Origin: a virus
UHGV virus genome: UHGV-0105037
DNA: 19,273 nt
Strand: one strand, 5' to 3'
The position numbers were made by a program, and so were the translations under genes. The notes under the pieces were generated by a model. That model was not told the origin of the DNA, ran no database searches, and saw nothing but the letters and a program-made list of their open reading frames with translations. Shown piece by piece: positions 1 to 14,003 of this stretch (position 1 is its first letter; each line of letters starts with the position of its first letter).

Positions 1-49
1 TACAATGCGGGTTTGAGCGGCATAAATTACCACTGAAAGCCCTTAAACG

Positions 50-1063
50 TTACTCTACTGTGGACACTGTGTGGACACTCTCGGCCTCAGTACCACCTCT
101 TAGCGGATTAAGAGAAATGGCGTCCTGAAGGTACTCTGGCGCAAAATGAGCGTAAACCATAGTTTGCTCAATCCGCGTGTGACCTAGTATCCGTTGTAGC
201 GTGATAATACTTCCTCCATTAATCATGAAATGAGTGGCAAAGCTGTGCCTTAGTGCATGTGTGGCTTGCCCCATTGGCAAATCCGGTTTTATTGCTTTCA
301 TTGTTCGTCTGAAGCGAGGGTAATCAGCATCAGGGAATAAAAAACCTCGTTTGTTATCCGCGATCATTTTGGCAACAGCCTCTGAGATCGGGACGGTGCG
401 TGGTTTGTTTGTTTTCGTTTTAACAAACGTGACGCGGTTATGGATGATATTTTCTGCTTTCAAACGAGCTGCTTCTCCCCAACGTGCTCCAGTACTCAGG
501 CAAAGAATCGCAATCTTTTTGTTGTCGCCGTCAAGATCAGCAAGCAGTAAGGCAATTTCTTCCTGCGTGAGATAGCCTGTGTCTGGTTTTTCCTCCTTAA
601 GCCTTTTTGTCCCTCTGATAGGGTGCTCACCAAAGAATAACTCCGCTTCAATCAGGGCTGTAAACATGCCGCTAATACATGTTAAATCACGATTGATACT
701 CGAAGGTTTAATACCCTGACTTCTTCGGGTGGCGCAGTACTGGCTGATAAGCGATTTCGTAATTTGAAATGCGCATGGGTCATTCGTTATTTTTGTGAAG
801 ATTTCAATTTTTCCAAGATTAGATTTCCCATGCTCTTCGTGTTTACCCTTTAAATCCCACCAGATCTGTGTCAGCTCCGACAGACGTCGCTTGTCTGTTG
901 GTTTTGATAGCCATTCTTTATTGTGGTGGTTGTACAACGTGTATTTCTCGAAAGCGACAGCTTCGCTTTTCTTATCAAACTTCCTACGGATGCGTTTTCC
1001 ATTACGTCCAGTAGGGCGGATGTCCACTTCATATCGACCATCATCGAGTTTTTTGATTGCCAT
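50..1063 (-). CDS. int: Tyrosine integrase, P2 Int-like (337 aa)
   Basis: ORF translation has the C-terminal catalytic region of tyrosine recombinases (ARWGEAARL ... HALRHSFATHF ... LGHTRIEQTMVYAHF). Length and N-terminus (MAIKKLDDGRYEVDIRPTGRNGKRIRRKF) match P2 Int as I recall it. Position next to C/cox is the P2 arrangement. Confidence 0.93.
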   Translation of the reverse strand: MAIKKLDDGRYEVDIRPTGRNGKRIRRKFDKKSEAVAFEKYTLYNHHNKEWLSKPTDKRRLSELTQIWWDLKGKHEEHGKSNLGKIEIFTKITNDPCAFQITKSLISQYCATRRSQGIKPSSINRDLTCISGMFTALIEAELFFGEHPIRGTKRLKEEKPDTGYLTQEEIALLLADLDGDNKKIAILCLSTGARWGEAARLKAENIIHNRVTFVKTKTNKPRTVPISEAVAKMIADNKRGFLFPDADYPRFRRTMKAIKPDLPMGQATHALRHSFATHFMINGGSIITLQRILGHTRIEQTMVYAHFAPEYLQDAISLNPLRGGTEAESVHTVSTVE

Positions 1064-1117
1064 CAGAAAACCCTCCGAGTGGTGTGTTTTTTTGCGACTA
1101 CTAATCGCTTTTTTCGT

Positions 1118-1138
1118 GGTGGCTGAAATTTAGCCACC
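1118..1138. repeat. 7-bp inverted repeat (ggtggct-N7-agccacc) in the int-C intergenic region, preceded by a T-run
   Basis: Read directly: ggtggct at 1118-1124 and agccacc at 1132-1138; cgcttttttcg lies just upstream on the + strand. Not a canonical minus-strand terminator, because on that strand the hairpin is followed by A-rich sequence. Confidence 0.4.
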
Positions 1139-1178
1139 AATAGTAGGCACTTGTGATGAATATATTCACGATGAATTG

Positions 1179-1478
1179 TTAACCAGTCTTTTGACCGGAG
1201 TGGGGCGACGTTGTTTCGTTTTGCCCAAAGTGTGCGAGAGCGGGCGCAATTTGCCCGGACTCAGGAGCGATCTGATTGGTCATGAACCATAAAGTGTATT
1301 TGGTGAATTGTGGGGTCTGCAGGATGTTCATCATGACATCTGTTGGAGGTGTTGAACGACCACTTTCATAGTAACTCAGCGTGCCATACGGAACCCCTGT
1401 TAAATCAGCAAGTTGTTGTCTGCTCAAATACTCTGATTTTCGCATTAAGACTATCTTCTCGCTTATCGTGTTTGACAT
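1179..1478 (-). CDS. C: Immunity repressor C (99 aa, HTH)
   Basis: 99-aa ORF with an N-terminal HTH-like segment (SRQQLADLTGVPYGTLSYYESGRSTP). Size matches P2 C, and it is transcribed divergently from cox and co-directionally with int. Confidence 0.88.
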   Translation of the reverse strand: MSNTISEKIVLMRKSEYLSRQQLADLTGVPYGTLSYYESGRSTPPTDVMMNILQTPQFTKYTLWFMTNQIAPESGQIAPALAHFGQNETTSPHSGQKTG

Positions 1479-1511
1479 GGTGTTTAGATCTCAATAGTAT
1501 TTAGTTTAGAT
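1472..1511 (+). promoter_or_regulatory. Early promoter Pe with two direct-repeat C operators (O1, O2)
   Basis: Read directly: TTGACA at 1472-1477, a 17-bp spacer, then TAGTAT at 1495-1500. The 8-bp direct repeat GTTTAGAT occurs at 1482-1489 and 1504-1511, 22 bp centre to centre, flanking the -10. This matches the described P2 arrangement of two direct-repeat operators around the Pe -10. Confidence 0.6.
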
Positions 1512-1549
1512 GTAGATTGTTTAGTGCTTGGATGTGGGCACTAAAAGGC

Positions 1550-1570
1550 ATTATAAGACATTAAACGCAA
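1550..1570 (-). promoter_or_regulatory. Candidate Pc promoter (minus strand), face to face with Pe
   Basis: Minus-strand TATAAT (plus-strand attata at 1550-1555) lies between the C start (1478) and cox start (1593). No good -35 at 17-bp spacing; TTGCGT (plus 1565-1570) is only 9 nt away. Weak promoter call. Confidence 0.3.
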
Positions 1571-1592
1571 TTCATGAGGGCTAGAGGACGAC

Positions 1593-1868
1593 ATGAGCAA
1601 GCAAGTAACACTCATGACTGATGCGATTCCTTATCAGGAGTTCGCAAAACTAATAGGAAAATCGACAGGAGCGGTTCGTCGGATGATCGATAAAGGAAAG
1701 CTGCCTGTAATTGATATGACCGATCCACAATCAGCTTCAGGTCGTGCAGGTGAATATTGGGTATACCTTCCGGCATGGAATAACGGACTAAAACTGGCTT
1801 ATGAAAGCCGACCTAAAGAGATTCGTGACGGCTGGTTGATGTGGTTAGGTCTCGGTGAACCACGTTAA
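1593..1868 (+). CDS. cox: Cox excisionase / Pc repressor (91 aa)
   Basis: 91-aa ORF immediately downstream of Pe with an RBS (gagg at 1577-1580). Size and position match P2 Cox. Confidence 0.88.
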   Translation: MSKQVTLMTDAIPYQEFAKLIGKSTGAVRRMIDKGKLPVIDMTDPQSASGRAGEYWVYLPAWNNGLKLAYESRPKEIRDGWLMWLGLGEPR

Positions 1869-1878
1869 GGAGAACCGT

Positions 1879-2049
1879 ATGAATGAGCCTCGTTGTATTG
1901 CTCAGTTACTGCGTAACGAAAGCCCCAGGGCGATTGACTTCACCATCACCCACGGTAAGGGGCGTAAGGGAATCATTATCCGCACCAAAAAACAGAGTCC
2001 GTTAAAAAAGGCTCTGACCTTTCTGAAAAGCCGGAGGGTATGGAAATGA
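1879..2049 (+). CDS. Small early-operon protein (P2 orf78-like, 56 aa)
   Basis: Internal ATG at 1879 is preceded by AAGGAG (1867-1872) with 6-nt spacing, just after the cox stop. Basic small protein of unknown function. Confidence 0.55.
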   Translation: MNEPRCIAQLLRNESPRAIDFTITHGKGRKGIIIRTKKQSPLKKALTFLKSRRVWK

Positions 2050-2546
2050 CAGTGATGACGCTCAATCTCGTTGAAAAACAGCCAGCAGCTATGCGCCGGA
2101 TAATTGGTAAGCATCTTGCCGTTCCTCGCTGGCAGGATACATGTGATTATTATAATCAGATGATGGAGCGCGAACGGCTAACAGTTTGCTTTCATGCGCA
2201 GTTAAAACAGCGTCACGCAACGATGCGTTTTGAAGAAATGAACGACGTCGAACGTGAACGACTGGTATGTGCAATTGATGAATTGCGTGGGGCATTCTCA
2301 AAACGTCGTCAGGTTGGTGCAAGTGAGTATGCATATATTAGTTTCTTAACAGTCAGTCAGCGTCGTACTTTATTTATGCATGCCGGATTGACTGAAAAAG
2401 AATTTAACCAGCCATACTGGCGAATTAATGAAGAGTCATGTTACTGGCGTGATGCTTTATTCCGTGCATTACGTGAATTATTCAGCCTGTTTGAGTATGC
2501 ACCGACAATTCTGACGTCGGTAAAACCAGAGCAATATCTGCATTAA
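2046..2546 (+). CDS. B: Replication protein B (helicase-loader-like, about 166 aa)
   Basis: ORF 2040-2546; the second ATG at 2046 has GGAGGG (2033-2038) at 7-nt spacing. Size and position match P2 B. Confidence 0.82.
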   Translation: MTVMTLNLVEKQPAAMRRIIGKHLAVPRWQDTCDYYNQMMERERLTVCFHAQLKQRHATMRFEEMNDVERERLVCAIDELRGAFSKRRQVGASEYAYISFLTVSQRRTLFMHAGLTEKEFNQPYWRINEESCYWRDALFRALRELFSLFEYAPTILTSVKPEQYLH

Positions 2547-2609
2547 GTAATTAACCAGAGTTTTTAACGCACTTAATCGTGCGGGGCTTCTTTTTGCCTG
2601 GAGAAAGTT

Positions 2610-2834
2610 ATGCATACAGTTTCTGAAAATCAGTGCGGTAAATACGCATTACTGCTGCAACAGGCCAGAACCGAAGCACAGGCCGACGCTGCGACGCGCT
2701 TTTCTTCTCATCTTGATGCCATGATTCGCCACATCACAAAGGCGGAGTTATCCCGCGTGGAGATAGTCGAGCTGCTCAGTCAGGAGTCGGAAAAATTTCA
2801 CAATATCGGATTGTCTCGCGGGGAGGTGCTTTGA
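2610..2834 (+). CDS. Hypothetical early protein (P2 orf80-like, 74 aa)
   Basis: ORF with RBS ggag upstream (ctggagaaagttATG). Sits in the B-A interval, where P2 has four small ORFs with overlapping stop/start codons. Confidence 0.6.
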
Positions 2835-3136
2835 TGTCCTGTTCTCGTTCAGTTGTATTACTGAATAACGCCTTAAAAATCGCCGTTATGAAAAATGGCG
2901 ATTTGTCTCTTATTCAACTTGGTCTTGATAAAGAAAAACGCGAAATAACTGAGTCTGTTATCGCGATTTATCAGAACGAATTAAACCTCCTGTCTGATGT
3001 GGTCAATTTGCTTGTTAAACGCGCTGTGTTTCACAAGCAAATCTCCTCCGTGGATGAACTGACGAAATTAACGACAGAAATCGCCAGCTATTGCGCTGAT
3101 GAATTTAAAAACCTTAACGACAAAAGGAACTGGTAA
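2831..3136 (+). CDS. Hypothetical early protein (P2 orf81-like, 101 aa)
   Basis: Start overlaps the upstream stop (ATGA-type coupling); co-oriented small ORF in the early operon. Confidence 0.6.
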
Positions 3137-3360
3137 TGCCGGACAACGTAGATTTTATTCAGGCACAACAGGCTGAATTACTGGAGCGCCAGATTAACGC
3201 GGCAAGGGTAAAACATTGCGGTGCTTCTGCGATGGTTTGCGAAGAGTGTGACGCGCCAATACCTGCTGCCCGTCGTGCGGCTTATCCGTCAGCCACGCGT
3301 TGTGTTTCCTGTCAGTCAGTTTTTGAAGCAAAAAACAAACATTACCGGAGAACGGCATGA
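3136..3360 (+). CDS. DksA/TraR-family C4 zinc-finger protein (P2 orf82-like, 74 aa)
   Basis: Translation contains CEEC-N17-CVSC (CxxC...CxxC), typical of TraR/DksA-type zinc fingers. Start overlaps the upstream stop. Confidence 0.72.
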   Translation: MPDNVDFIQAQQAELLERQINAARVKHCGASAMVCEECDAPIPAARRAAYPSATRCVSCQSVFEAKNKHYRRTA

Positions 3361-3632
3361 GTATTCGTATTGAAATTGGCGAACGTTATGTCGTTACCAG
3401 TGACAGCTTTCAGTTTATTCTCCACGAGAAAAAGAGAGCTGAAAGCGGTAAAAACGCCGGTCAGGAATGGCTGGCGGTGGTTGGTTATTACCCGAAATTA
3501 AGCCAGCTCGTTTCCGGCCTGATGCATCACGATATTCTGACCGGAAGCGCAAAGTCTTTTGCTGATTTAAACGCGCAGGTTGAGCAACTCAGCAAGCGTT
3601 GTTCAGAGGCTTTTGGCTCATATGGCCGTTAA
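3357..3632 (+). CDS. Hypothetical early protein (P2 orf83-like, 91 aa)
   Basis: Co-oriented ORF with start overlapping the upstream stop; ends where A begins. Confidence 0.6.
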   Translation: MSIRIEIGERYVVTSDSFQFILHEKKRAESGKNAGQEWLAVVGYYPKLSQLVSGLMHHDILTGSAKSFADLNAQVEQLSKRCSEAFGSYGR

Positions 3633-5892
3633 AGCCTCCGGGCGTTTTGTCCCTCCGTCAGCATTTGCCGCAGGCACCGGTAAGACGTTTACCGGTGCTT
3701 ATGCATGGAACGCGCCACGCGAGGCCGTCGGGCGCGAAAGACCCCTTACACGTGACGAGATGCGTCAGGTGCAAGGTGTTTTATCCACGATTAACCGCCT
3801 GCCTTACTTTTTGCGCTCGCTGTTTACTTCACGCTATGACTACATCCGGCGCAATAAAAGCCCGGTGCACGGGTTTTATTTCCTCACATCCACTTTTCAG
3901 CGTCGTTTATGGCCGCGCATTGAGCGTGTGAATCAGCGCCATGAAATGAACACCGACGCGTCGTTGCTGTTTCTGGCAGAGCGTGATCACTATGCGCGCC
4001 TGCCGGGAATGAATGACAAGGAGCTGAAAAAGTTTGCCGCCCGTATCTCATCGCAGCTTTTCATGATGTATGAGGAACTCAGCGATGCCTGGGTGGATGC
4101 GCATGGCGAGAAAGAATCACTGTTTACGGATGAGGCTCAGGATCACCTGTATGGTCATGTTGCTGGCGCTGCACGAGCTTTCAATATTTCCCCTCTCTAC
4201 TGGAAAAAATACCGTAAAAGACAGATGACCACGAGGCAGGCATATTCTGCCATTGCCCGTCTGTTTAACGATGAGTGGTGGACTCATCAGCTTAAAGGCC
4301 AGCGTATGCGCTGGCATGAAGCGTTACTGATAGCTGTCGGGGAGGTCAATAAAGACCGTTCTCCTTATGCCAGTAAACACGCCATTCGTGATGTGCGTGC
4401 GCGCCGCCAGGCAAATCTGGAATTTCTTAAATCGTGTGACCTTGAAAACAGGGAAACCGGCGAGCGCATCGACCTTATCAGTAAGGTGATGGGCAGTATT
4501 TCTAATCCTGAAATTCGCCGGATGGAGCTGATGAACACCATTGCCGGTATTGAGCGTTACGCCGCTGCAGAGGGGGATGTGGGGATGTTTATCACGCTGA
4601 CCGCGCCGTCAAAGTATCACCCGACACGTCAGGTAGGAAAAGGCGAAAGTAAAACCGTGCAGCTTAATCACGGCTGGAACGATGAGGCATTTAATCCAAA
4701 GGATGCGCAGCGTTATCTCTGCCGTATCTGGAGCCTGATGCGCACGGCATTCAAGGATAATGATTTACAGGTCTACGGTTTGCGTGTCGTCGAGCCACAC
4801 CACGACGGAACGCCGCACTGGCATATGATGCTTTTTTGTAATTCACGCCAGCGTAACCAGATTATCGAAATCATGCGTCGCTATGCGCTCAAAGAGGATG
4901 GCGACGAAAGAGGAGCCGCGCGAAACCGTTTTCAGGCAAAACACCTTAACCGGGGCGGTGCTGCGGGATATATCGCGAAATACATTTCAAAAAACATCGA
5001 CGGCTATGCACTGGATGGTCAGCTCGATAACGACACCGGCAGGCCGCTGAAAGACACTGCAGCGGCTGTTACCGCATGGGCGTCAACGTGGCGCATCCCG
5101 CAATTTAAAACGGTTGGCCTGCCGACAATGGGGGCTTACCGTGAACTACGCAAATTGCCGCGCGGCGTCAGCATTGCTGATGAGTTTGACGAGCGCGTCG
5201 AGGCTGCACGCGCCGCCGCAGACAGTGGTGATTTTGCGTTGTATATCAGCGCGCAGGGTGGGGCAAATGTCCCGCGCGATTGTCAGACTGTCAGAGTCGC
5301 CCGTAGCCCGTCGGATGAAGTTAACGAGTACGAGGAAGAAGTCGAGAGAGTGGTCGGCATTTACGCGCCGCATCTCGGCGCGCGTCATATTCATATCACC
5401 AGAACGACGGACTGGCGCATTGTGCCGAAAGTGCCGGTCGTTGAGCCTTTGACTTTAAAAAGCGGCATCGCCGCGCCTCGGAGTCCTGTCAATAACTGTG
5501 GAAAGCTCACCGGTAGTGATGTTTCGTTACCGGCTCCCACACCTTCTGAGCACGCCGCCGCAGTGCTTAATCTGGTTGATGACGGTGTTATCGAATGGAA
5601 TGACCAGGAGGTCGTGAGGGCGCTCAGGGGCGCATTAAAACACGACCTGAGAACACCAAACCGTCAGCAAAGAAGCGGAAGCCCGTTAAAACCGCATGAA
5701 ATAGCGCCATCGGCCAGACTGACCCGGTCGGAACGAATGCAAATTACCCGTATCCGCGTTGACCTTGCTCAGAACGGTATCAGGCCGCAGCGATGGGAGC
5801 TTGAGGCGCTGGCGCGTGGGGCAACTGTAAATTACGACGGGAGAAGCTTCAGTTATCCTGTTATATGTGATTGGAGAGCGTATGAATTATGA
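3622..5892 (+). CDS. A: Replication initiation protein A (rolling-circle HUH endonuclease)
   Basis: Long ORF (770 aa from a TTG at 3580; first ATG at 3622 gives MAVKASGRF..., the N-terminus I recall for P2 A). Contains an HUH-like motif (GTPHWHMMLF) and paired tyrosines (AGYIAKYISK), as in P2 A / phiX174 gpA-type nickases. Confidence 0.9.
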   Translation: MAVKASGRFVPPSAFAAGTGKTFTGAYAWNAPREAVGRERPLTRDEMRQVQGVLSTINRLPYFLRSLFTSRYDYIRRNKSPVHGFYFLTSTFQRRLWPRIERVNQRHEMNTDASLLFLAERDHYARLPGMNDKELKKFAARISSQLFMMYEELSDAWVDAHGEKESLFTDEAQDHLYGHVAGAARAFNISPLYWKKYRKRQMTTRQAYSAIARLFNDEWWTHQLKGQRMRWHEALLIAVGEVNKDRSPYASKHAIRDVRARRQANLEFLKSCDLENRETGERIDLISKVMGSISNPEIRRMELMNTIAGIERYAAAEGDVGMFITLTAPSKYHPTRQVGKGESKTVQLNHGWNDEAFNPKDAQRYLCRIWSLMRTAFKDNDLQVYGLRVVEPHHDGTPHWHMMLFCNSRQRNQIIEIMRRYALKEDGDERGAARNRFQAKHLNRGGAAGYIAKYISKNIDGYALDGQLDNDTGRPLKDTAAAVTAWASTWRIPQFKTVGLPTMGAYRELRKLPRGVSIADEFDERVEAARAAADSGDFALYISAQGGANVPRDCQTVRVARSPSDEVNEYEEEVERVVGIYAPHLGARHIHITRTTDWRIVPKVPVVEPLTLKSGIAAPRSPVNNCGKLTGSDVSLPAPTPSEHAAAVLNLVDDGVIEWNDQEVVRALRGALKHDLRTPNRQQRSGSPLKPHEIAPSARLTRSERMQITRIRVDLAQNGIRPQRWELEALARGATVNYDGRSFSYPVICDWRAYEL

Positions 5893-5985
5893 GATTGTGA
5901 TAAAAAGTAAATAATTAATATAATGCAATTGCTTAACTGTTTTAAAAGGGACAACGTAGTTGTGAACTATATTGTCCCGGGAGTA

Positions 5986-7041
5986 TTAATTTTTAAATAT
6001 GGATTGTATGTATTCTATAGTGCTATCTTTAGCTCTGATGTCTTTTAAAGTGTTATTTATGAAATCTATTATTCTGTCATTACTTAATAGTGGCGATAAC
6101 GCATAACATGTTGTTGTGAATGTCATGACGTCACTAAAGCTTAGTGAAACACCTTTTGTCGCAGCGTTCTCAATCGCAAGAGACTCATCAATATCTAAGT
6201 TTGTTGCTCTTGGCCCTTTAAGGAAGATAACTTTTGAAATCCCGGATGCAGATGCTTTTGAAACGGCGTGATTAACATCTTGATAATTAAATGGTTTGTC
6301 TTTCACTTCTATAGAAAGGAAAACTATATCATCATGATATACATCTATGTCCAGTATCTCTTTTGAGGAGCTACCGGCCTGATTGACGGGATGTGCTTTT
6401 ATTATCCATCCTCTTTGTTCACCTAATAAATGTAACGAAATTGCGGCAGCAATCGCGCATGTTTCTCCATCACAAGGATGAGATATAATATTATAAATAA
6501 TCTTATGGAAATCAAAATTAATTGAGTTCGGCGTTATAACTCTATTGGTTCGCTGTAGGGTAAAATATAATGCAATAACAAGCATTTCATAAGCTAAGGT
6601 TTGGGTTGTTGCTGCATGTAATATATCAATTGAAAGTTGTTGTAAAACCTTATCATTTCCTCTGCGCACAGGGTTATCAGAGGAGTGGAGCATGTAACGA
6701 GCTGGTTTATTTAGAAATGGCTCATTTGATGCGCCTAACTTACCCTCTAAAAATGGGCCTTCTACTTTGCCTACTATTACCGAATGACATAAACTCCTTG
6801 CATCATAGGCTCCGTCTACGGGGGCATTAGCTTGTAAAGCCAGAGGGTTAACTCTAGGGTCTGTTGCTTTTGCAAGTAAACCAGTAATAAGTATATATCT
6901 GTATGTAAGGTGGGTGCCTAAAATTACATTTTGAATGGAGACCCATTGATTATTTGTTTTGTAATCAGTTAATTTTTTTGCATCGTTGATTGCATTTATA
7001 ATTACATTATAGGCTTGCTCATGATTTACTAATACTTTCAT
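5986..7041 (-). CDS. Uncharacterized 351-aa cargo protein; candidate restriction endonuclease or defence effector with a possible PD-(D/E)xK-like motif
   Basis: ORF in a visibly AT-rich segment unlike the flanking phage DNA. Strong RBS (AAGGA, 5 nt before the ATG at 7041). Its start overlaps the stop of the upstream HTH gene by 23 bp. Motif HDDIVFLSIEVKDK could be a D...(D/E)xK nuclease core. I do not recognise the family. Confidence 0.75.
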   Translation of the reverse strand: MKVLVNHEQAYNVIINAINDAKKLTDYKTNNQWVSIQNVILGTHLTYRYILITGLLAKATDPRVNPLALQANAPVDGAYDARSLCHSVIVGKVEGPFLEGKLGASNEPFLNKPARYMLHSSDNPVRRGNDKVLQQLSIDILHAATTQTLAYEMLVIALYFTLQRTNRVITPNSINFDFHKIIYNIISHPCDGETCAIAAAISLHLLGEQRGWIIKAHPVNQAGSSSKEILDIDVYHDDIVFLSIEVKDKPFNYQDVNHAVSKASASGISKVIFLKGPRATNLDIDESLAIENAATKGVSLSFSDVMTFTTTCYALSPLLSNDRIIDFINNTLKDIRAKDSTIEYIQSIFKN

Positions 7042-7333
7042 AGGTGTCCTTTAGTAAGATATCCATTGGTAGACCTAATCGGCTTGCAACCACCTCTAAT
7101 AATTCAAATAGTTCTAAAGCATCTAATCGCCTTTCAAAGCTTTCGATTTTAGATATATCTGATTGTGATAATCCTAGAAAAATGGCCAATTCTGACTGCG
7201 AAAGAGAAGCTTCTTTGCGTAGTTTGGTGAGAAGCTGGACTAGGCACCTGTATCTATGATCATGTATAGTTGGTTGTCGTTTTGCCATGTGGTTTAGAAG
7301 GTGATTGATTGTGTGTCGATCCTTACCTATCAT
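7019..7333 (-). CDS. XRE/Cro-family HTH transcriptional regulator (candidate controller protein); alternative start at 7288
   Basis: Translation contains a typical XRE HTH (LSQSELAIFLGLSQSDISKIE). Translationally coupled to the downstream 351-aa gene and divergent from the methyltransferase. ATG at 7333 gives 104 aa; the internal ATG at 7288 gives 89 aa. Confidence 0.72.
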   Translation of the reverse strand: MIGKDRHTINHLLNHMAKRQPTIHDHRYRCLVQLLTKLRKEASLSQSELAIFLGLSQSDISKIESFERRLDALELFELLEVVASRLGLPMDILLKDTYESISKS

Positions 7334-7371
7334 TGGTTTTATTCCAAAATCGAATAATTGGTGCTAAAGAA

Positions 7372-8463
7372 GTGAACAAAATTTCAGCGGTGAGCTTATT
7401 TACTGGGGCAGGAGGGATGGATGTCGGTTTCTCTAATGCCGGGTTCCGAACAGTTTGGGCCAATGATATAGATAAGGATGCATGTGATACATTTAAGCTT
7501 AATCATGAATCACCTGTTTTTTGTGGTGATATTGATGAGATGCTAAGTGAATTGTCTGGGCTGAAAAATATAGGTTGTGTTTTTGGTGGGCCTCCATGCC
7601 AAGGATTTTCTGTGGCAGGGAAAATGGACGCTCATGATCCACGTAGTAAGCTGGTTATGTCATTCATGCGGGCGGTGGATATAATTCAACCAGAATGCTT
7701 TGTTATGGAGAATGTTAAGGCTTTAGCACAGTTGTCCAAATTTGAACCAGTTAGGTGTGAACTGTTTAAGATGGCTGAAAAGTCAGGCTATCGTTCAGCC
7801 TTGCTGGTGCTGAATTCTAAAGATTTTGGCGTTCCTCAGAATAGGGAACGTATGTTTTTTATAGGGTTTCGTTCCGAAAATGATGTGAAACGAGTTGAGG
7901 CGGCGATAAAAAAATACCAATATCTTTCGCCAACAGTTGGTGAGATTATTCGGCCTTTAGGGCGAGCGGGTAATCCAAATAATTCAAGAGTCTGTAATGC
8001 AAGGATTACAAATGCTGCTAAGCCAGTATTACGGAAGTCACCTTACGCGGGAATGATGTTTAACGGGCAGGGAAGACCAATTAACCCGAATGGGTATGCT
8101 TCAACTATAGCTGCTTCTATGGGGGGGAATAGGACACCAATTATTGATGAAGAACACCTTTATGATGGCTCAACAAGTTATGTTGAGACTTATCATAATC
8201 ATCTAATGAATGGTGGTGAGCCAAAAGATATGCACGATGTACCTAGTCGTTTACGTCGACTAACGATAGATGAGGCTCTTTTGATTCAAACATTCCCGAG
8301 TAATTATGTCTTTGTGGGGAAAAATTCGTCAATTTGGCGTCAGATAGGGAATGCTGTGCCTTGTAAATTGGCGCAGGCTGTTGCTGCAGGGGTTTTGGAT
8401 GTCCTTACTGGTAAAACTATTAATGTTCAAAAGAGTCAAACAGAGTTGAGTTTGAATTCGTAA
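7372..8463 (+). CDS. DNA (cytosine-5)-methyltransferase
   Basis: Canonical C5-MTase motifs: FTGAGGMDVGF (motif I, AdoMet binding), GGPPCQGFS (motif IV, catalytic Cys), ENV (motif VI), QNRERMFFIG (motif VIII), GNAVP (motif X). The frame has no ATG before motif I; the ORF track starts at a TTG at 7309, and I prefer the GTG at 7372, which leaves a typical short leader before FxGxGG. Confidence 0.9.
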   Translation: MNKISAVSLFTGAGGMDVGFSNAGFRTVWANDIDKDACDTFKLNHESPVFCGDIDEMLSELSGLKNIGCVFGGPPCQGFSVAGKMDAHDPRSKLVMSFMRAVDIIQPECFVMENVKALAQLSKFEPVRCELFKMAEKSGYRSALLVLNSKDFGVPQNRERMFFIGFRSENDVKRVEAAIKKYQYLSPTVGEIIRPLGRAGNPNNSRVCNARITNAAKPVLRKSPYAGMMFNGQGRPINPNGYASTIAASMGGNRTPIIDEEHLYDGSTSYVETYHNHLMNGGEPKDMHDVPSRLRRLTIDEALLIQTFPSNYVFVGKNSSIWRQIGNAVPCKLAQAVAAGVLDVLTGKTINVQKSQTELSLNS

Positions 8464-8619
8464 AACGGATCACATTTTCAAACCGATGGATGCAGAATTT
8501 AACATTGCTGCATGAGTTTGCATCTTGAAATCATAAGCTGTACTGCTTAGCTTGACCAGAATTGATGTGGGTAAGAAGTGGTTATGCACCCGCATTAAAA
8601 CCGCCCCATTAAGCGGGCG

Positions 8620-8638
8620 GGCGAGGCGGGGAAAGCAC
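8620..8638. other. cos: cos cohesive-end site (P2-type 19-nt GGCGAGGCGGGGAAAGCAC)
   Basis: Exact 19-mer ggcgaggcggggaaagcac read at 8620-8638. This is the P2 cohesive-end sequence as I recall it. It sits where expected, between the end of the early/cargo region and Q, and is preceded by the palindrome ccgccc-atta-agcgggcgg. Confidence 0.6.
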
Positions 8639-8780
8639 TGCGCGCTGGCGGTGGTGCTGATTTTATTTTTTCAGCGTCTGAGCGCGTCGTGATGGCGTTT
8701 AGATTGTTCGCCGGGGCGTTGGTGTGTCTGCGGGCTGTTTTGTGCGGTGGTGAGCGTGTGAGGGCGTGATGGCGGGGTGT

Positions 8781-8802
8781 AAAAAAGCCGCCCACAGGCG
8801 GC
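8781..8802 (-). terminator. Rho-independent terminator downstream of Q (minus strand)
   Basis: GC hairpin gccgcc-caca-ggcggc (8787-8802), followed on the minus strand by a T-run (plus-strand aaaaaa at 8781-8786), immediately 3' of the Q stop (8808-8810). Confidence 0.6.
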
Positions 8803-8807
8803 GATGT

Positions 8808-9842
8808 TCAGCCGTTGTCAGTGTCCAGTGAGTAGTTTTTAAAGCGGATGACCTCCTGACCGAGCCAGCCGTTTATCTCGCGGATCCTGTCCTGTAACGG
8901 GATAAGCTCATTGCGGACAAAGACCTTTGCCACTTTCTCTATATCACCCAGCGACCCGACGTTCTCCGGCTTGCCACCCATCAACTGAAAGGGGATGCGG
9001 TGCGCGTCCAGCAGGTCAGCGGCGCTGGCTTTTTTGATATTAAAAAAATCGTCCTTCGTCGCCACTTCACTGAGGGGGATAATTTTAATGCCGTCGGCTT
9101 TCCCCTGTGGGGCATAGAGAAACAGATTTTTAAAGTTATTGCGGCCTTTCGACTTAACCATGTTTTCGCGTAGCATTTCGATATCGTTGCGATCCTGCAC
9201 GGCATCAGTGACGTACATGATGTATCCGGCATGTGCGCCATTTTCGTAATACTTGCGGCGGAACAGCGTGGCCGACTCATTCAGCCAGGCAGAATTAAGG
9301 GCGCTGAGATATTCCGGCAGACCGTACAGCTCCTGATTAATATCCGGCTCCAGCAGGTGAAACACGGAGCCGGGCGCGAAGGCTGTCGGCTCGTTGAAGG
9401 ACGGCACCCACCAGTAAACATCCTCTTCCACACCACGGCGGGTATATTTTGCCGGTGAGGTTTCCAGTCTGATGACCTTACCGGTGGTACTGTAACGCTT
9501 TTCCAGAAACGCATTACCGAACACCAGAAAATCCAGCACAAAGCGGCTGAAATCCTGCTGGGAAAGCCACGGGTGCGGGATAAACGTTGAGGCCAGAATA
9601 TTACGTTTGACGTAAATCGGTGAGCTGTGATGCACGGCAGCACGCAGGCTTTTTGCCAGACCGGTAAAGCTGACCGGTGGCTCATACCATCTGCCGTTAC
9701 TGATGCACTCGACGTAATCCAGAATATCACGGCGGTCGAGTACCGGCACCGGCTCACCAAAGGTGAATGCCTCCATTTTCGGGGCGCTGGCAGTCATTGT
9801 TTTCACCGCTGGCTGCGGTGTTTTCCCTTTTTTCTTACTCAT
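8808..9842 (-). CDS. Q: Portal (capsid vertex) protein Q (344 aa)
   Basis: 344-aa ORF next to cos on the minus strand; its start codon overlaps the P stop. Size, position and sequence match P2 Q as recalled. Confidence 0.88.
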   Translation of the reverse strand: MSKKKGKTPQPAVKTMTASAPKMEAFTFGEPVPVLDRRDILDYVECISNGRWYEPPVSFTGLAKSLRAAVHHSSPIYVKRNILASTFIPHPWLSQQDFSRFVLDFLVFGNAFLEKRYSTTGKVIRLETSPAKYTRRGVEEDVYWWVPSFNEPTAFAPGSVFHLLEPDINQELYGLPEYLSALNSAWLNESATLFRRKYYENGAHAGYIMYVTDAVQDRNDIEMLRENMVKSKGRNNFKNLFLYAPQGKADGIKIIPLSEVATKDDFFNIKKASAADLLDAHRIPFQLMGGKPENVGSLGDIEKVAKVFVRNELIPLQDRIREINGWLGQEVIRFKNYSLDTDNG

Positions 9843-11614
9843 CAGTAAAACTCCAGAATGGTGGATGTCAGCGGAGTGCTGATACCGGCGGTGAGTGGCT
9901 CATTTAACAGGGCGTGCATGGTCGCCCAGGCGAGGTCGGCGTGGCTGGCTTCCTCGCTGCGGCTGGCCTCATAGGTGGCGCTGCGTCCGCTGCTGGTCAT
10001 GGTCTTGCGGATAGCCATGAACGAGCTGGTGATGTCGGTGGCGCTGACGTCATATTCCAGACAGCTACGGCGGATAACGTCTTTTGCCTTGAGCACCATT
10101 GCAGTTTTCATTTCCGGCGTGTAGCGGATATCGCGCGCGGCGGGATAGAACGAGCGCACGAGCTGGAACACGCCGACACCGAGGCCGGTGGCATCAATAC
10201 CGATGTATTCGACGTTATATTTTTCGGTGAGTTTGCGGATGGATTCAGCCTGGGTGGCAAAGTCCATGCCTTTCCACTGGTGACGCTCAAGTATTCTGAA
10301 TTTGCCACCGGCCACCACCGGCGGTGCCAGCACCACGCATCCGGCGCTGTCGCCACGGTGTGACGGGTCGTAACCAATCCATACCGGACGTGAGCCGAAC
10401 GGATTGGCGGCAAACGGAGCATAGTCTTCCCATTCTTCCAGCGTGTCGACCATGCAGCGTTGCAGCTCCTCGAACGGGAACACCGACGCCTTGTCGTCAA
10501 CAAATTCACACATGAACAGGTTTTTAAAATCGTCGGCGCTGTTTTCACGTTTGAGCTGCTCAATGTCGAACAGCGTGCAGCCGCCTTTCAGGGCGTCCTC
10601 AATGGTGACAATCTGCCGCCACTGGCCGTCCGCACAGAGAAGCCCACCGGCAAGGGCGTTATGACTGACGTCGATTTCCACGCGCTCGGCGGCGCTGGCG
10701 CGTCCCCGGTTAAACAGTTCACCCGACCAGAACGGGTAGGCGTCGTGCGCCAGTGTGGACGGGGTGGAGAAATAGGTCGAGCGCAGGTGACTCTGTGAGG
10801 CCATACCTGATGCCACCTTACGCAGTACCTGAAAATTCGGGATCCAGAAAATCTCGTCGACGTACAGGTCGCCGTTATGGCTCTGCGCGGTGTTGGAGTT
10901 GGTGCCGAGAAAAATCAGTTTTGCGCCGTTATTGCCCAGGACAATCGGGTCACCGGTCAGGTCAACGTCAACCAGCCGGGCAAAGGCGATGATGTATTCG
11001 CGGAACACATACGCCTGCGTTTTACTGGCCGACAGAAAAATCTGGTTATGACCGGTTTTCAGGGCGCGCAGCAGCGCCTCGCGGGAAAAATAAAACGTCG
11101 CGCCAATCTGGCGGGATTTCAGGATATCGCGGATGCGGTGCTCAAGCCCGGCGCGATACCAGTGCAACTGATATTCGAAAGACTGCTCAAAGAAAATCTG
11201 CTCCAGCTTTTCGATGGCCTCGTCACTGAAAAAATTCTTTTTCGGTTTGCGCCGCCCGCCTTTGTTGCGGTTAGCGACGTTCGGATTAAGGTCTGCCTCG
11301 TTGCCGGTCTGACTGTAACGGTTTACCCGTGCCAGTCGTTCAATCTGGCGTCCGAGCAGGTCAATTTCCTTGAAGTCACCGCCAGTTTTCTGCGGTTTGA
11401 TGATGAGCTGGGTCAGCCGCGCTTCCAGACTCATTTCGACACGGCTGATGGGGGCAACGCTGTCCCAGCCGTCGCGCTGTTTCCAGCTCTGCACCGTCGG
11501 GCGTTTCATCTGCAACATGGCGGCAATCTGCGGCACGGAAAACCCCTGCCAGTACAGCAGCGCCGCCTGACGACGCGGGTCGTGTAAAAGAGTGGTGTCT
11601 GTGGTGATGGTCAT
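9842..11614 (-). CDS. P: Terminase large subunit (ATPase/nuclease) P (590 aa from ATG at 11614)
   Basis: The ORF extends to 11644, but the internal ATG at 11614 (MTITTDTTLL...) has GAGGT 4-5 nt upstream and gives the 590-aa P2 P length. Large ORF adjacent to and co-transcribed with the portal gene. Confidence 0.9.
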   Translation of the reverse strand: MTITTDTTLLHDPRRQAALLYWQGFSVPQIAAMLQMKRPTVQSWKQRDGWDSVAPISRVEMSLEARLTQLIIKPQKTGGDFKEIDLLGRQIERLARVNRYSQTGNEADLNPNVANRNKGGRRKPKKNFFSDEAIEKLEQIFFEQSFEYQLHWYRAGLEHRIRDILKSRQIGATFYFSREALLRALKTGHNQIFLSASKTQAYVFREYIIAFARLVDVDLTGDPIVLGNNGAKLIFLGTNSNTAQSHNGDLYVDEIFWIPNFQVLRKVASGMASQSHLRSTYFSTPSTLAHDAYPFWSGELFNRGRASAAERVEIDVSHNALAGGLLCADGQWRQIVTIEDALKGGCTLFDIEQLKRENSADDFKNLFMCEFVDDKASVFPFEELQRCMVDTLEEWEDYAPFAANPFGSRPVWIGYDPSHRGDSAGCVVLAPPVVAGGKFRILERHQWKGMDFATQAESIRKLTEKYNVEYIGIDATGLGVGVFQLVRSFYPAARDIRYTPEMKTAMVLKAKDVIRRSCLEYDVSATDITSSFMAIRKTMTSSGRSATYEASRSEEASHADLAWATMHALLNEPLTAGISTPLTSTILEFY

Positions 11615-11787
11615 GAATACCTCGCCGTGATGAATACACGGCAAGGCTACTGAGTCGCGCCCCGCGATTCGCTAAGGTGCTGTTGTGTCAGTGATAAGCC
11701 ATCCGGGACTGATGGCGGAGGATGCGCATCGTCGGGAAACTGATGCCGACATGTGACTCCTCTAATCACTATTCAGGACTCCTGACA
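11615..11787. promoter_or_regulatory. Divergent late-promoter region between P and O (expected Ogr-dependent promoters)
   Basis: 173-bp intergenic region between divergent late operons. Contains the inverted repeat ccatc-N7-gatgg (11699-11715) and TGT-rich sequence (tgttgtgtca, 11681-11690). I could not place an exact TGT-N12-ACA activator site. Confidence 0.35.
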
Positions 11788-12642
11788 ATGGCAAAAAAAG
11801 TCTCAAAATTCTTTCGTATCGGCGTTGAGGGTGACACCTGTGACGGGCGTGTCATCAGTGCGCAGGATATTCAGGAAATGGCCGAAACCTTTGACCCGCG
11901 AGTCTATGGTTGCCGCATTAACCTGGAACATCTGCGCGGCATCCTGCCTGACGGTATTTTTAAGCGTTATGGCGATGTGGCCGAACTGAAGGCCGAAAAG
12001 ATTGACGATGATTCGGCGCTGAAAGGCAAATGGGCGCTGTTTGCGAAAATCACCCCGACCGATGACCTTATCGCGATGAACAAGGCCGCGCAGAAGGTCT
12101 ACACCTCAATGGAAATTCAGCCGAACTTTGCCAACACCGGCAAATGTTATCTGGTGGGTCTGGCCGTCACCGATGACCCGGCAAGCCTCGGCACGGAATA
12201 CCTGGAATTCTGCCGCACGGCAAAACACAACCCCCTGAACCGCTTCAAATTAAGCCCTGAAAACCTGATTTCAGTGGCAACGCCTGTTGAGCTGGAATTT
12301 GAAGACCTGCCTGAAACCGTGTTCACCGCCCTGACCGAAAAGGTGAAATCCATTTTTGGCCGCAAACAGGCCAGCGATGACGCCCGTCTGAATGACGTGC
12401 ATGAAGCGGTGACCGCTGTTGCTGAACATGTGCAGGAAAAACTGAGCGCCACTGAGCAGCGCCTCGCTGAGATGGAAACCGCCTTTTCCGCACTTAAGCA
12501 GGAGGTGACTGACAGGGCGGATGAAACCAGTCAGGCATTCACCCGCCTGAAAAACAGTCTCGACCACACCGAAAGTCTGACCCAGCAGCGCCGCAGTAAA
12601 GCCACCGGCGGTGGCGGTGACGCCCTGATGACGAACTGCTAA
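11788..12642 (+). CDS. O: Capsid scaffolding protein O (284 aa)
   Basis: ORF from the ATG at 11788 (MAKKVSKFFRIGVEGD...). The C-terminal half is helix-rich (LSATEQRLAEMETAFSALKQEV), typical of scaffolds. Divergent from P as in P2. Confidence 0.85.
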   Translation: MAKKVSKFFRIGVEGDTCDGRVISAQDIQEMAETFDPRVYGCRINLEHLRGILPDGIFKRYGDVAELKAEKIDDDSALKGKWALFAKITPTDDLIAMNKAAQKVYTSMEIQPNFANTGKCYLVGLAVTDDPASLGTEYLEFCRTAKHNPLNRFKLSPENLISVATPVELEFEDLPETVFTALTEKVKSIFGRKQASDDARLNDVHEAVTAVAEHVQEKLSATEQRLAEMETAFSALKQEVTDRADETSQAFTRLKNSLDHTESLTQQRRSKATGGGGDALMTNC

Positions 12643-12700
12643 CCGGCGTCAGTCAGTCCGGGAAAACCTTCACGATTAACCCTTAATTTCAGGAAAAACT

Positions 12701-12871
12701 ATGCGCCAGGAAACCCGCTTTAAATTTAATGCCTACCTGTCCCGTGTTGCCGAACTGAACGGCATCGACGCCGGTGATGTGTCGAAAAAATTCACCGTTG
12801 AACCGTCGGTCACCCAGACCCTGATACGGAATTGCAGCGTAACGCGCTGGAGTGCGCAGGATGTGAGCTGA
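12701..12871 (+). pseudogene. N: Truncated major capsid gene N: first 41 or so codons, then out-of-frame fusion
   Basis: ATG at 12701 with RBS (aggaaaaact). Translation MRQETRFKFNAYLSRVAELNGIDAGDVSKKFTVEPSVTQTL matches the P2 N N-terminus, then switches to unrelated residues (IRNCSVTRWSAQDVS) and stops at 12869-12871. A full capsid protein would be about 357 aa. Confidence 0.7.
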
Positions 12872-13377
12872 TTTTTGAGGATAAAATCAGCGGCACGAAG
12901 TCCGACCGACCGGGACTGAAAAAACTGCTCAGGACATTATCGGAGGGGGATACACTGGTGGTCTGGAAGCTGGACCGGCTGGGGCGTAGTATGCGGCATC
13001 TGGTCATTCTGGTTGAGGAACTGCGCGAACGCGGCGTTAATTTTCGCAGCCTGACGGATGCTATTGATACCAGCACACCGATGGGGCGTTTTTTCTTTCA
13101 TGTGATGGGTGCCCTGGCTGAAATGGAGCGAGAACTCATTGTCGAGCGGACACGCGCCGGACTGGAAGCGGCCAGAGCCAAAGGTCGTATTGGTGGCAGA
13201 CGACCGAAACTCACCGCGAGTGAGTGGGAGCAGGCCGGGCGTTTGCTGGCTGCAGGGGAGTCACGTCAACGCGTGGCACTGATTTTTGATATTGGCCTGT
13301 CCACGCTCTATAAAAAATTTCCCTCATCAGCGACAAAGAATAAATTGTGTCATCCCTTAGCCAACCGGGACAAATAG
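12832..13377 (+). pseudogene. 5'-truncated serine DNA invertase (Hin/Gin/Pin/Cin family) lacking the catalytic N-terminus
   Basis: Translation (LQRNALECAGCELIFEDKISGTKSDRPGLKKLL ... MGRFFFHVMGALAEMERELIVERT ... GGRRPKL ... STLYKKF) is a typical resolvase/invertase from about residue 20 onward. There is an in-frame stop at 12799-12801 and no ATG near the homology boundary, so the first ~20 residues, including the catalytic serine, are missing. Confidence 0.78.
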
Positions 13378-13436: not shown

Positions 13437-14003
13437 ATGAGTGACTATCATCACGGCGTGCAGGTGCTGGAGATTAACGACGGCACCCGCGTCATTTCCA
13501 CCGTATCCACTGCCATTGTCGGCATGGTCTGCACGGCCAGCGATGCGGATGCGGAAACCTTCCCCCTCAATAAACCGGTGCTGATTACCAATGTGCAGAG
13601 TGCAATTGCAAAGGCCGGTAAAAAAGGCACGCTGGCGGCATCGTTGCAGGCCATCGCCGACCAGTCAAAACCGGTCACCGTTGTCGTACGTGTGGAAGAC
13701 GGCACCGGCGACGACGAGGAAACGAAACTCGCGCAGACCGTTTCCAATATCATCGGCACCACCGACGAAAACGGTCAGTACACCGGACTGAAAGCCCTGC
13801 TGGCGGCGGAGTCGGTAACCGGTGTTAAACCGCGTATTCTCGGCGTGCCGGGACTGGATACCAAAGAGGTGGCTGTTGCACTGGCATCAGTCTGTCAGAA
13901 GCTGCGTGCTTTCGGATATATCAGCGCATGGGGCTGTAAGACCATTTCCGAGGTGAAAGCCTACCGCCAGAATTTCAGCCAGCGTGAGCTGATGGTCATC
14001 TGA
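13437..14003 (+). pseudogene. FI: Truncated tail sheath gene FI (188 codons of about 396)
   Basis: Good RBS (acggag) and start ([25 protein letters not shown]...) matching the P2 sheath N-terminus. The ORF stops abruptly at ...QRELMVI, and the downstream sequence continues as FII in another frame. Confidence 0.72.

Follow-up and report, generated by a model that had tools for sequence, protein, structure and literature searches.

Which genes fill the AT-rich interval between the replication gene A and the cos site of this P2-type prophage, and what keeps them there? The original prediction placed at 5893-8619 of the window (the whole 19,273-nt stretch analysed) a three-gene cargo island and regarded a controller-regulated type II restriction-modification (R-M) system as its simplest reading. 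This reading holds: the island is almost certainly the EcoT38I type II R-M system, which a P2-type prophage carries as accessory cargo in its cos-proximal A-Q hotspot, with the 351-aa protein as R.EcoT38I, the helix-turn-helix (HTH) protein as C.EcoT38I and the C5 enzyme as the cognate methyltransferase M. The cassette is thus real but already known, having been published in 2003, and structures of its nuclease and its controller are in the PDB. All three genes match curated families far above threshold and the island is therefore no chance pattern of open reading frames.

Comparison of the window with P2 (NC_001895) by blastn aligned positions 1-5858 with P2 24413-30270, from int through most of A, and positions 8620-12825 with P2 1-4204, that is cos, Q, P, O and the start of N, while no counterpart of 5859-8619 was found in P2. 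According to the P2 annotation the insert stands in for P2 30271-33593, which comprises the end of A, orf91, tin and old, as predicted for the segment between A and cos. The left flank is the replication gene A (3580-5892, plus strand; the start annotated in relatives corresponds to 3622), identified by Pfam Phage_GPA (E 1.3e-122), by 98% DNA identity to P2 and by the RefSeq label “replication endonuclease”. The right flank is the portal gene Q (8808-9842, minus strand), identified by Pfam Phage_portal, the P2 annotation and blastn. At the left junction (5859-5985), defined by blastn and the sequence, P2 homology stops at 5858, 34 nt short of the A stop (5892), and an AT-rich spacer of 93 nt leads from the A stop to the stop codon of the R gene. 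The right junction with cos (8464-8638) was delimited by alignment with P2 33370-33593, blastn and the P2 cosL/cosR annotation. There, 156 nt of spacer separate the M stop from the 19-nt cohesive end, GGCGAGGCGGGGAAAGCAC at 8620-8638, which is shared with P2; about 32 nt to its left (about 8588-8619) likewise recur at the right end of P2. The lower GC content that had been noticed relative to the flanking phage DNA was confirmed: it is 0.385 in the insert (from about 5859 or 5893 to 8619) and 0.528 elsewhere in the window. By gene, values were 0.355 for R, 0.370 for C and 0.418 for M, as against 0.537 and 0.527 for the flanking genes A and Q. In P2-like phages this A-Q interval has been documented as a hotspot for anti-phage cargo (Rousset et al. 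2022, PMC9122126), in agreement with the position proposed from the sequence. Here too a variable insert is flanked by conserved gpA and cos/gpQ, and in other E. coli prophages the same interval carries unrelated genes. The E. coli prophage of the window is of the P2 type and is defective, since blastn against P2 revealed two internal deletions, with joints at 12825/12826 and 14001, and about 13 kb of late genes together with part of FI/FII are missing.

Within the insert the open reading frames lie as had been described: a minus-strand HTH gene overlaps the gene for the 351-aa protein, and the C5 methyltransferase gene diverges from this pair. The largest product was the one for which the original prediction had recognized no family signature, and on this point it was mistaken, as the protein falls into a Pfam family, is matched by a PADLOC model and has been solved by crystallography. 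The gene, ecoT38IR (5986-7041, minus strand), encodes the 351-aa type II restriction endonuclease R.EcoT38I of the SacI family. Its product matches Pfam RE_SacI (PF09566) with 258 bits (E 1.9e-76; cut-off 19.3) over profile positions 4-276 of 276. In the search against PADLOC models suggested as a check, it gave 834 bits with the REase_II model PDLC03473 across 351 of 351 residues. It is 100% identical (351/351) to the protein deposited in the PDB under 7E8R and 7EDB as “EcoT38I restriction endonuclease”. The NCBIfam collection holds no model for this protein, which may be why it looked free of any signature. Residues D231, D233, E245 and K247 are invariant across the 12 homologous sequences compared, down to 38% identity, and by the PD-(D/E)XK pattern they are predicted to form the catalytic core (D-x-D...E-x-K). 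Beyond the P2 lineage, homologues reach only about 35-41% identity.

Directly upstream of R and in the same orientation lies ecoT38IC (7019-7288, minus strand), the 3′ end of which overlaps the start of R by 23 nt (7019-7041). Its Pfam HTH_3 match (28.3 bits, cut-off 23), its position and its identity to a PDB entry mark the product as a controller (C) protein with an XRE-type HTH. The open reading frame can be read back to an ATG at 7333 (7019-7333, 104 aa), and residues 21-104 of this longer form match, at 100% identity, the 84-aa chain of PDB 2EF8, whose molecule name is just “Putative transcription factor”. C.EcoT38I appears among the REBASE C proteins in PMC2632904. Matches to characterized C proteins were weak, namely PADLOC Control_protein (E 2e-4 and 4e-3), C.BclI (E 0.021) and C.AhdI (E 0.064). 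The spacer that lies upstream of the MAKR... start varies in length among diverged cassettes (+14, +12, +10 and +7 nt). The longer frame is thus lost, and the N-terminal extension of the 104-aa reading falls out of frame in the relatives. The C gene accordingly comprises 89 codons and not 104.

Phylogenetic footprinting of the diverged cassettes also yielded a candidate operator. The 15-nt sequence ATTCGATTTTGGAAT (7341-7355, minus strand), located where the M and C/R genes diverge, is the core of a conserved palindrome, the inverted repeat TTATTC-N7-GAATAA (7339-7357). Across 10 cassettes with R proteins of only 39-73% identity it shows at most 3 substitutions, and the intergenic DNA around it cannot be aligned among distant cassettes. 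We consider this 15-mer the likely C operator (C-box), to which C.EcoT38I is expected to bind. It is present once in the window, and no second, weaker copy was found there when up to 3 mismatches were allowed; the usual layout with two operators is thus not demonstrated.

The divergent gene, ecoT38IM (7372-8463, plus strand, GTG start), encodes the 363-aa C5 cytosine DNA methyltransferase M.EcoT38I. Its product was matched by Pfam DNA_methylase (PF00145; E 1.3e-66, 225.7 bits, cut-off 22), by TIGR00675 dcm (200.3 bits, cut-off 100.65) and by PADLOC MTase_II (265 bits), and its nearest solved relative is M.HaeIII (6e-39). As anticipated for a C5 enzyme with the core motifs, the translation contains FTGAGG (I), GPPCQGFS (IV), ENV (VI), QNRER (VIII) and GNAVP (X). 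The full open reading frame spans 7309-8463, and a 384-aa protein could be read from the TTG at 7309. We place the start at 7372 on two grounds: the M protein deposited as UniProt Q83VT0 (taxon Peduovirus P2) matches the 363-aa form exactly, and the 330-bp spacing between R and M (7042-7371) requires this start. PMC9346568 attributes the 330-bp spacing to Kita et al. 2003. Judging by its accession neighbourhood and taxon, Q83VT0 is probably the M deposit of those authors. Start annotation of the C and M genes is inconsistent in RefSeq, and annotators may profit from the C-box candidate, the 89-codon C start and the 363-codon M start.

The EcoT38I system is reported to have been described from E. 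coli TH38 by Kita, Kawakami and Tanaka in 2003 (J Bacteriol 185:2296-2305), where C is said to activate R and to repress M. In everything that could be compared, we detected no difference between the TH38 system and the window. The R, C and M sequences are identical, R and M are arranged head to head and 330 bp apart, C overlaps R, and in both cases a defective P2 prophage carries the cassette between its genes A and Q. The title of Kita et al. 2003, as given in a citing paper, likewise assigns the EcoT38I genes to defective P2 prophages. The recognition of a C-controlled R-M system in the P2 cargo hotspot from raw sequence alone can serve as a positive control.

A mode of action can be proposed from these identities. 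We take it from Kita 2003 and REBASE that EcoT38I cuts GRGCY^C, that M methylates the inner cytosine and that R is homodimeric. M.EcoT38I, as a monomeric C5 methyltransferase, would methylate G(A/G)GC(T/C)C in the DNA of the host and of the prophage, and R.EcoT38I, a SacI-family enzyme with a D-x-D...E-x-K core, would cleave the same site where it is unmethylated in incoming DNA. C.EcoT38I would bind its operator within the 83 bp that separate the divergent starts of M and C, and in the bound state would switch the C-R operon on and M down. Such control would delay the nuclease until the DNA of a new host has been methylated. Given its enzyme class, the system would be expected to protect the lysogen against phages with GRGCYC sites.

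The same island, with at least 99.5% identity, was present in 20 of 5,426 complete E. coli genomes, in every case between genes annotated as “replication endonuclease” and “phage portal protein”. In these carriers its products bear the RefSeq labels SacI-family endonuclease, HTH protein and DNA cytosine methyltransferase. The best complete-genome matches show 98.5% identity over 97% of the window, and their prophages are non-deleted. The INPHARED phage collection gave no nucleotide match to the island, and at the protein level only relatives of about 35% identity in Evtepia phages. The plasmid collection held only distant archaeal and alphaproteobacterial relatives. Within the annotated collections the cassette is thus seen only in chromosomal prophages. 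In IMG/VR it is present in P2-like contigs.

If the identity of the genes is hardly in doubt, the selection that maintains them can be viewed differently. The cassette might be chiefly a selfish addiction module: upon loss of the prophage, methylation would be diluted faster than the nuclease and post-segregational killing would follow, which would stabilize even a defective P2 prophage and make phage defence a by-product. This explanation is compatible with the EcoT38I identity and differs only in what is selected. Post-segregational killing has been described for the class of C-controlled type II systems (Naito, Kusano and Kobayashi 1995). It would account for the state of the window, where the late genes and part of FI/FII have been lost yet all three R-M genes are intact, R and C being identical to the crystallized proteins, and for another carrier in which IS3 splits the integrase and the cassette is intact. 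Against it, most carriers among the complete genomes have apparently full-length prophages, so that the cassette is not specifically tied to decayed elements, and the slot that it occupies is a hotspot for anti-phage cargo in general (PMC9122126). On balance we consider addiction as the main function possible but rather unlikely.

Far less probable is that the genes are an inactive relic of a decaying prophage which neither cut nor methylate. Decay of the element is evident from its deletions, and in one carrier, FORC_082, the methyltransferase is annotated in two pieces, but in the window the three open reading frames are full length with intact catalytic motifs, and they are 100% identical to expressed and crystallized proteins (R, C) or to the M.EcoT38I deposit. 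Moreover, an active R combined with an inactive M would be lethal, and all TH38 strains tested are said to have expressed EcoT38I enzyme activity. That the 351-aa protein is instead a new restriction enzyme or some other effector beside an orphan methyltransferase is effectively ruled out, since no supporting point remained after testing, and the RE_SacI score, the end-to-end REase_II match and the identity to a solved and named enzyme (7E8R/7EDB) all oppose it.

Taken as the EcoT38I system, the island can be compared with related elements. R.EcoT38I belongs to the same protein family as SacI and the other PF09566 members, with full-length profile coverage. The SacI site GAGCTC is, by REBASE, a subset of GRGCYC, and in contrast to SacI the specificity of EcoT38I is degenerate, of the HgiJII/BanII type. 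A closer parallel in genomic setting is EcoO109I, whose R, M and C genes are carried by satellite prophages of the P4 type (Kita et al. 1999, as cited in PMC9122126). Like EcoT38I it is a C-controlled type II R-M system beside the cos of an element of the P2/P4 system, in a recognized defence hotspot, but its enzymes are different, its specificity is RGGNCCY and it is carried by the satellite instead of the helper phage. The old and tin genes of P2 share the position between A and cos and are non-essential lysogenic-conversion genes that exclude other phages. Old is, however, an ATPase/exonuclease and Tin excludes T-even phages, and neither distinguishes self from non-self by methylation.

The distribution of the recognition site provides a further view on the history of the cassette. 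There are no GRGCYC sites in the window and none in the 33.6 kb of reference P2, which lacks the cassette. By comparison, the 30.6 kb of the related coliphage 186 hold 17 sites, and the density in sampled host DNA is about 23 per 100 kb. As P2 itself is free of sites, avoidance specific to the carrier prophage was rejected as an explanation, and the 17 sites of 186 weaken the proposal that the absence merely reflects a general under-representation in the host. The pattern is not universal, because diverged P2-like contigs with diverged cassettes contain 3-4 sites per 12 kb. In P2-like phages, diverged copies of the cassette with its divergent M and C-R genes occupy the same A-Q slot, and the backbone genes of these phages are about equally diverged, which suggests vertical co-divergence rather than recent acquisition. 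The literature searched on GRGCYC and on the SacI family contained nothing relevant. The absence of GRGCYC from the P2 backbone hints at a long association of phage and R-M system, and, as a tentative reading that we find plausible without favouring it, the P2 (Peduovirus) lineage and an EcoT38I-type cassette may share a long history that shaped the phage genome by purging these sites from the backbone. Since the P2 backbone has no GRGCYC sites, EcoT38I cannot act on P2-type phages. If this history is true, the R-M system would be an old resident of the phage family, P2-type phages would be intrinsically immune, and EcoT38I would work only against non-P2 competitors.

The AT-rich island between gene A and cos is the published and structurally characterised EcoT38I restriction-modification cassette of a defective P2 prophage, comprising an endonuclease (R), a methyltransferase (M) and a controller (C), and is thus already known. 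The open reading frames and coordinates of the original prediction were found as described: the 351-aa R frame (5986-7041, minus strand), the HTH frame of C (originally 7019-7333, minus strand), the last 23 nucleotides of which overlap the start of R, and the divergent plus-strand frame of M, which ends at 8463 and probably starts at GTG 7372 (363 aa). The translation of the latter holds the complete set of C5-methyltransferase motifs (FTGAGG, GPPCQGFS, ENV, QNRER and GNAVP). The anticipated drop in GC content relative to the flanking phage DNA was also observed (38.5% in the island versus 52.8% in the remaining window). Alignment with phage P2 (NC_001895) matched window positions 1-5858 to P2 24413-30270 (int to near the end of A) and 8620-12825 to P2 1-4204 (cos, Q, P, O and the start of N), and no P2 counterpart was found in this alignment for the stretch between 5858 and 8620. 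The latter occupies the place of the end of A, orf91, tin and old, as had been proposed, and the view of this interval as a cargo hotspot agrees with Rousset et al. (PMC9122126), who distinguished 1,650 arrangements of genes among 18,150 A-Q loci. Positions 8620-8638 hold the 19-nt cohesive end, and about 32 bp on its left are still P2-like. Further to the left of cos, a TGCATGAG(T/A)TTGCAT block is common to the window (8505-8521) and P2 (about 33470-33490); kept despite unrelated neighbouring cargo genes, it could be part of the packaging region and not of the cargo.

R matches Pfam RE_SacI with the profile covered in full (E 1.9e-76) and the PADLOC type II REase model from end to end (834 bits), and matches PDB 7E8R/7EDB, the “EcoT38I restriction endonuclease”, at every one of its 351 residues (100% identity). 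Residues D231, D233, E245 and K247, invariant among homologues down to 38% identity, constitute, as judged from sequence, a PD-(D/E)XK-like core that is intact in the window. C is 100% identical to the PDB 2EF8 chain over its 84 residues, and C.EcoT38I is among the REBASE controller proteins studied by Sorokin et al. (PMC2632904). M translated from GTG 7372 exactly equals UniProt Q83VT0, an entry filed under Peduovirus P2; it scores far over the cut-off with Pfam DNA_methylase and TIGR00675, and its nearest solved relative is M.HaeIII. Given this start, R and M lie head to head with exactly 330 bp between them (7042-7371), the R-M spacing that a later paper (PMC9346568) quotes for Kita, Kawakami and Tanaka 2003, whose title places the EcoT38I genes on defective P2 prophages, as here. 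The main reading of the original prediction, a controller-regulated type II restriction-modification system, was right, the proteins being identical to their EcoT38I counterparts.

EcoT38I is said to recognise G(A/G)GC(C/T)C and to methylate its inner cytosine, R being a homodimer and M a monomer; C reportedly activates R and represses M, and the insertion is reported between A and Q of defective P2 at locI. The cassette would work as a C-controlled type IIP system, in which C5 methylation of the target by M would shield the DNA of both host and prophage, R would cut unmethylated copies in incoming DNA and C would postpone R expression once the cassette enters a new cell. That the cassette is intact within a decayed prophage would also fit a selfish role in stabilising the prophage, which would leave the identity of the cassette unchanged. 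Since the three proteins are all of full length and match expressed proteins exactly, the cassette is unlikely to be an inactive relic. A novel effector function of the 351-aa protein is excluded by the RE_SacI match, the PADLOC model and the 7E8R/7EDB identity, which also refute the claim that this protein has no family signature.

The window spans a P2 prophage from just inside att/int to ogr and is a defective, 19.3-kb remnant. Absent are P2 4205-17571 (most of N through fun(Z)) and, in a second deletion that fuses FI to FII (joint at 14001), P2 18218-18981. The first joint holds 531 bp of non-P2 DNA (12826-13356) with an N-terminally truncated serine recombinase/invertase gene (12832-13377, plus strand), whose product shows a Resolvase domain from profile position 19 followed by HTH_7; “recombinase family protein” genes of about 99-100% identity to this segment are present in many E. 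coli genomes. The island was present at ≥99.5% identity in 20 of 5,426 complete E. coli genomes, always chromosomal and always between “replication endonuclease” and “phage portal protein”, its genes labelled in RefSeq as SacI-family endonuclease, HTH protein and DNA cytosine methyltransferase. In strain 00-3076 the carrier prophage looks complete and lies between yegR and yegQ; in 13TMH22 (locus L001, 4897-7171) IS3 splits the P2 integrase and the cassette is intact. In a large protein collection, exact matches to the proteins are found on about 190 to 1,000 or more contigs, some of Salmonella included. Several complete chromosomes (CP146507, AP027697, CP062876, CP075640 and AP045787) carry the island at record position 2272-4998 and were therefore rotated to begin exactly at P2 gene A; presumably a start-fixing tool mistook the phage replication endonuclease for a chromosomal replication gene.

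Footprinting was performed on ten M<->C-R cassettes, with diverged forms from four P2-like or P2-sized viral contigs (R 56-73% identical), an Enterobacteriaceae metagenome-assembled genome (65%) and Psychrobacter, Enterovibrio, Rouxiella and another viral contig (about 40%). A candidate operator, ATTCGATTTTGGAAT (7341-7355, C-coding strand), lies between the M and C starts and is kept with at most three substitutions in all ten (the window, L006, L007, L012, L018, L091, L093-L095 and L097), at R identities down to 39%. This 15-nt palindrome forms the core of a TTATTC-N7-GAATAA inverted repeat; the conserved MAKR... start of C follows about 50 nt further on, and the M start codon is 17 nt away. 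A sigma-70-like promoter match (TTGATT-17-TATCAT, plus strand, 7305-7333) would place it just downstream of an M transcription start. From this position a bound protein could thus both block M and switch on the oppositely directed C-R promoter, which would fit the reported dual function of C. Some 10-20 nt further downstream is another conserved block, ATGATAGGT in near and TGTCAAAT in distant relatives, possibly a promoter element or another operator. The spacer upstream of the C start varies by +14, +12, +10 and +7 nt among relatives; the N-terminal extension of C to 104 aa is hence not conserved, and the 104-aa reading was rejected in favour of the 89-codon gene (7019-7288, minus strand). 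RefSeq records are inconsistent for the start of C (104, 89 or shorter) and for M (348, 363, 384 or 397 aa).

No copy of the EcoT38I target GRGCYC occurs in the window, against a shuffle expectation of 15.5 ± 3.5, or in the 33,593 bp of reference P2, which lacks the cassette (expected 33 by mono-nucleotide and 13.8 by maximal-order Markov models). GRGCYC occurs 5 and 18 times per 50 kb in sampled host DNA (about 23 per 100 kb) and 17 times in the 30.6 kb of the related coliphage 186. P2 is also poorer than 186 in CTGCAG (3 versus 29) and CYCGRG (3 versus 17). RGGNCCY, which is the site of the EcoO109I system found on P4-like satellites, is nearly absent from both phages. Diverged P2-like contigs with diverged cassettes do have 3-4 GRGCYC per 12 kb. 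Such cassettes lie between gpA and gpQ of P2-like phages in L006 and in two IMG/VR contigs of about 30 kb (L091 and L093), with 63-73% (R), 78-81% (M) and 82-83% (C) identity to the window. Their backbone proteins gpA, gpQ and gpP are 74-84% identical to those of the window; the cassette is about equally diverged, and this likeness at the sequence level suggests that cassette and backbone co-diverged. On the basis of essentially one lineage, the data suggest a long association with the cassette and purging of its target sites in the P2 lineage of E. coli.
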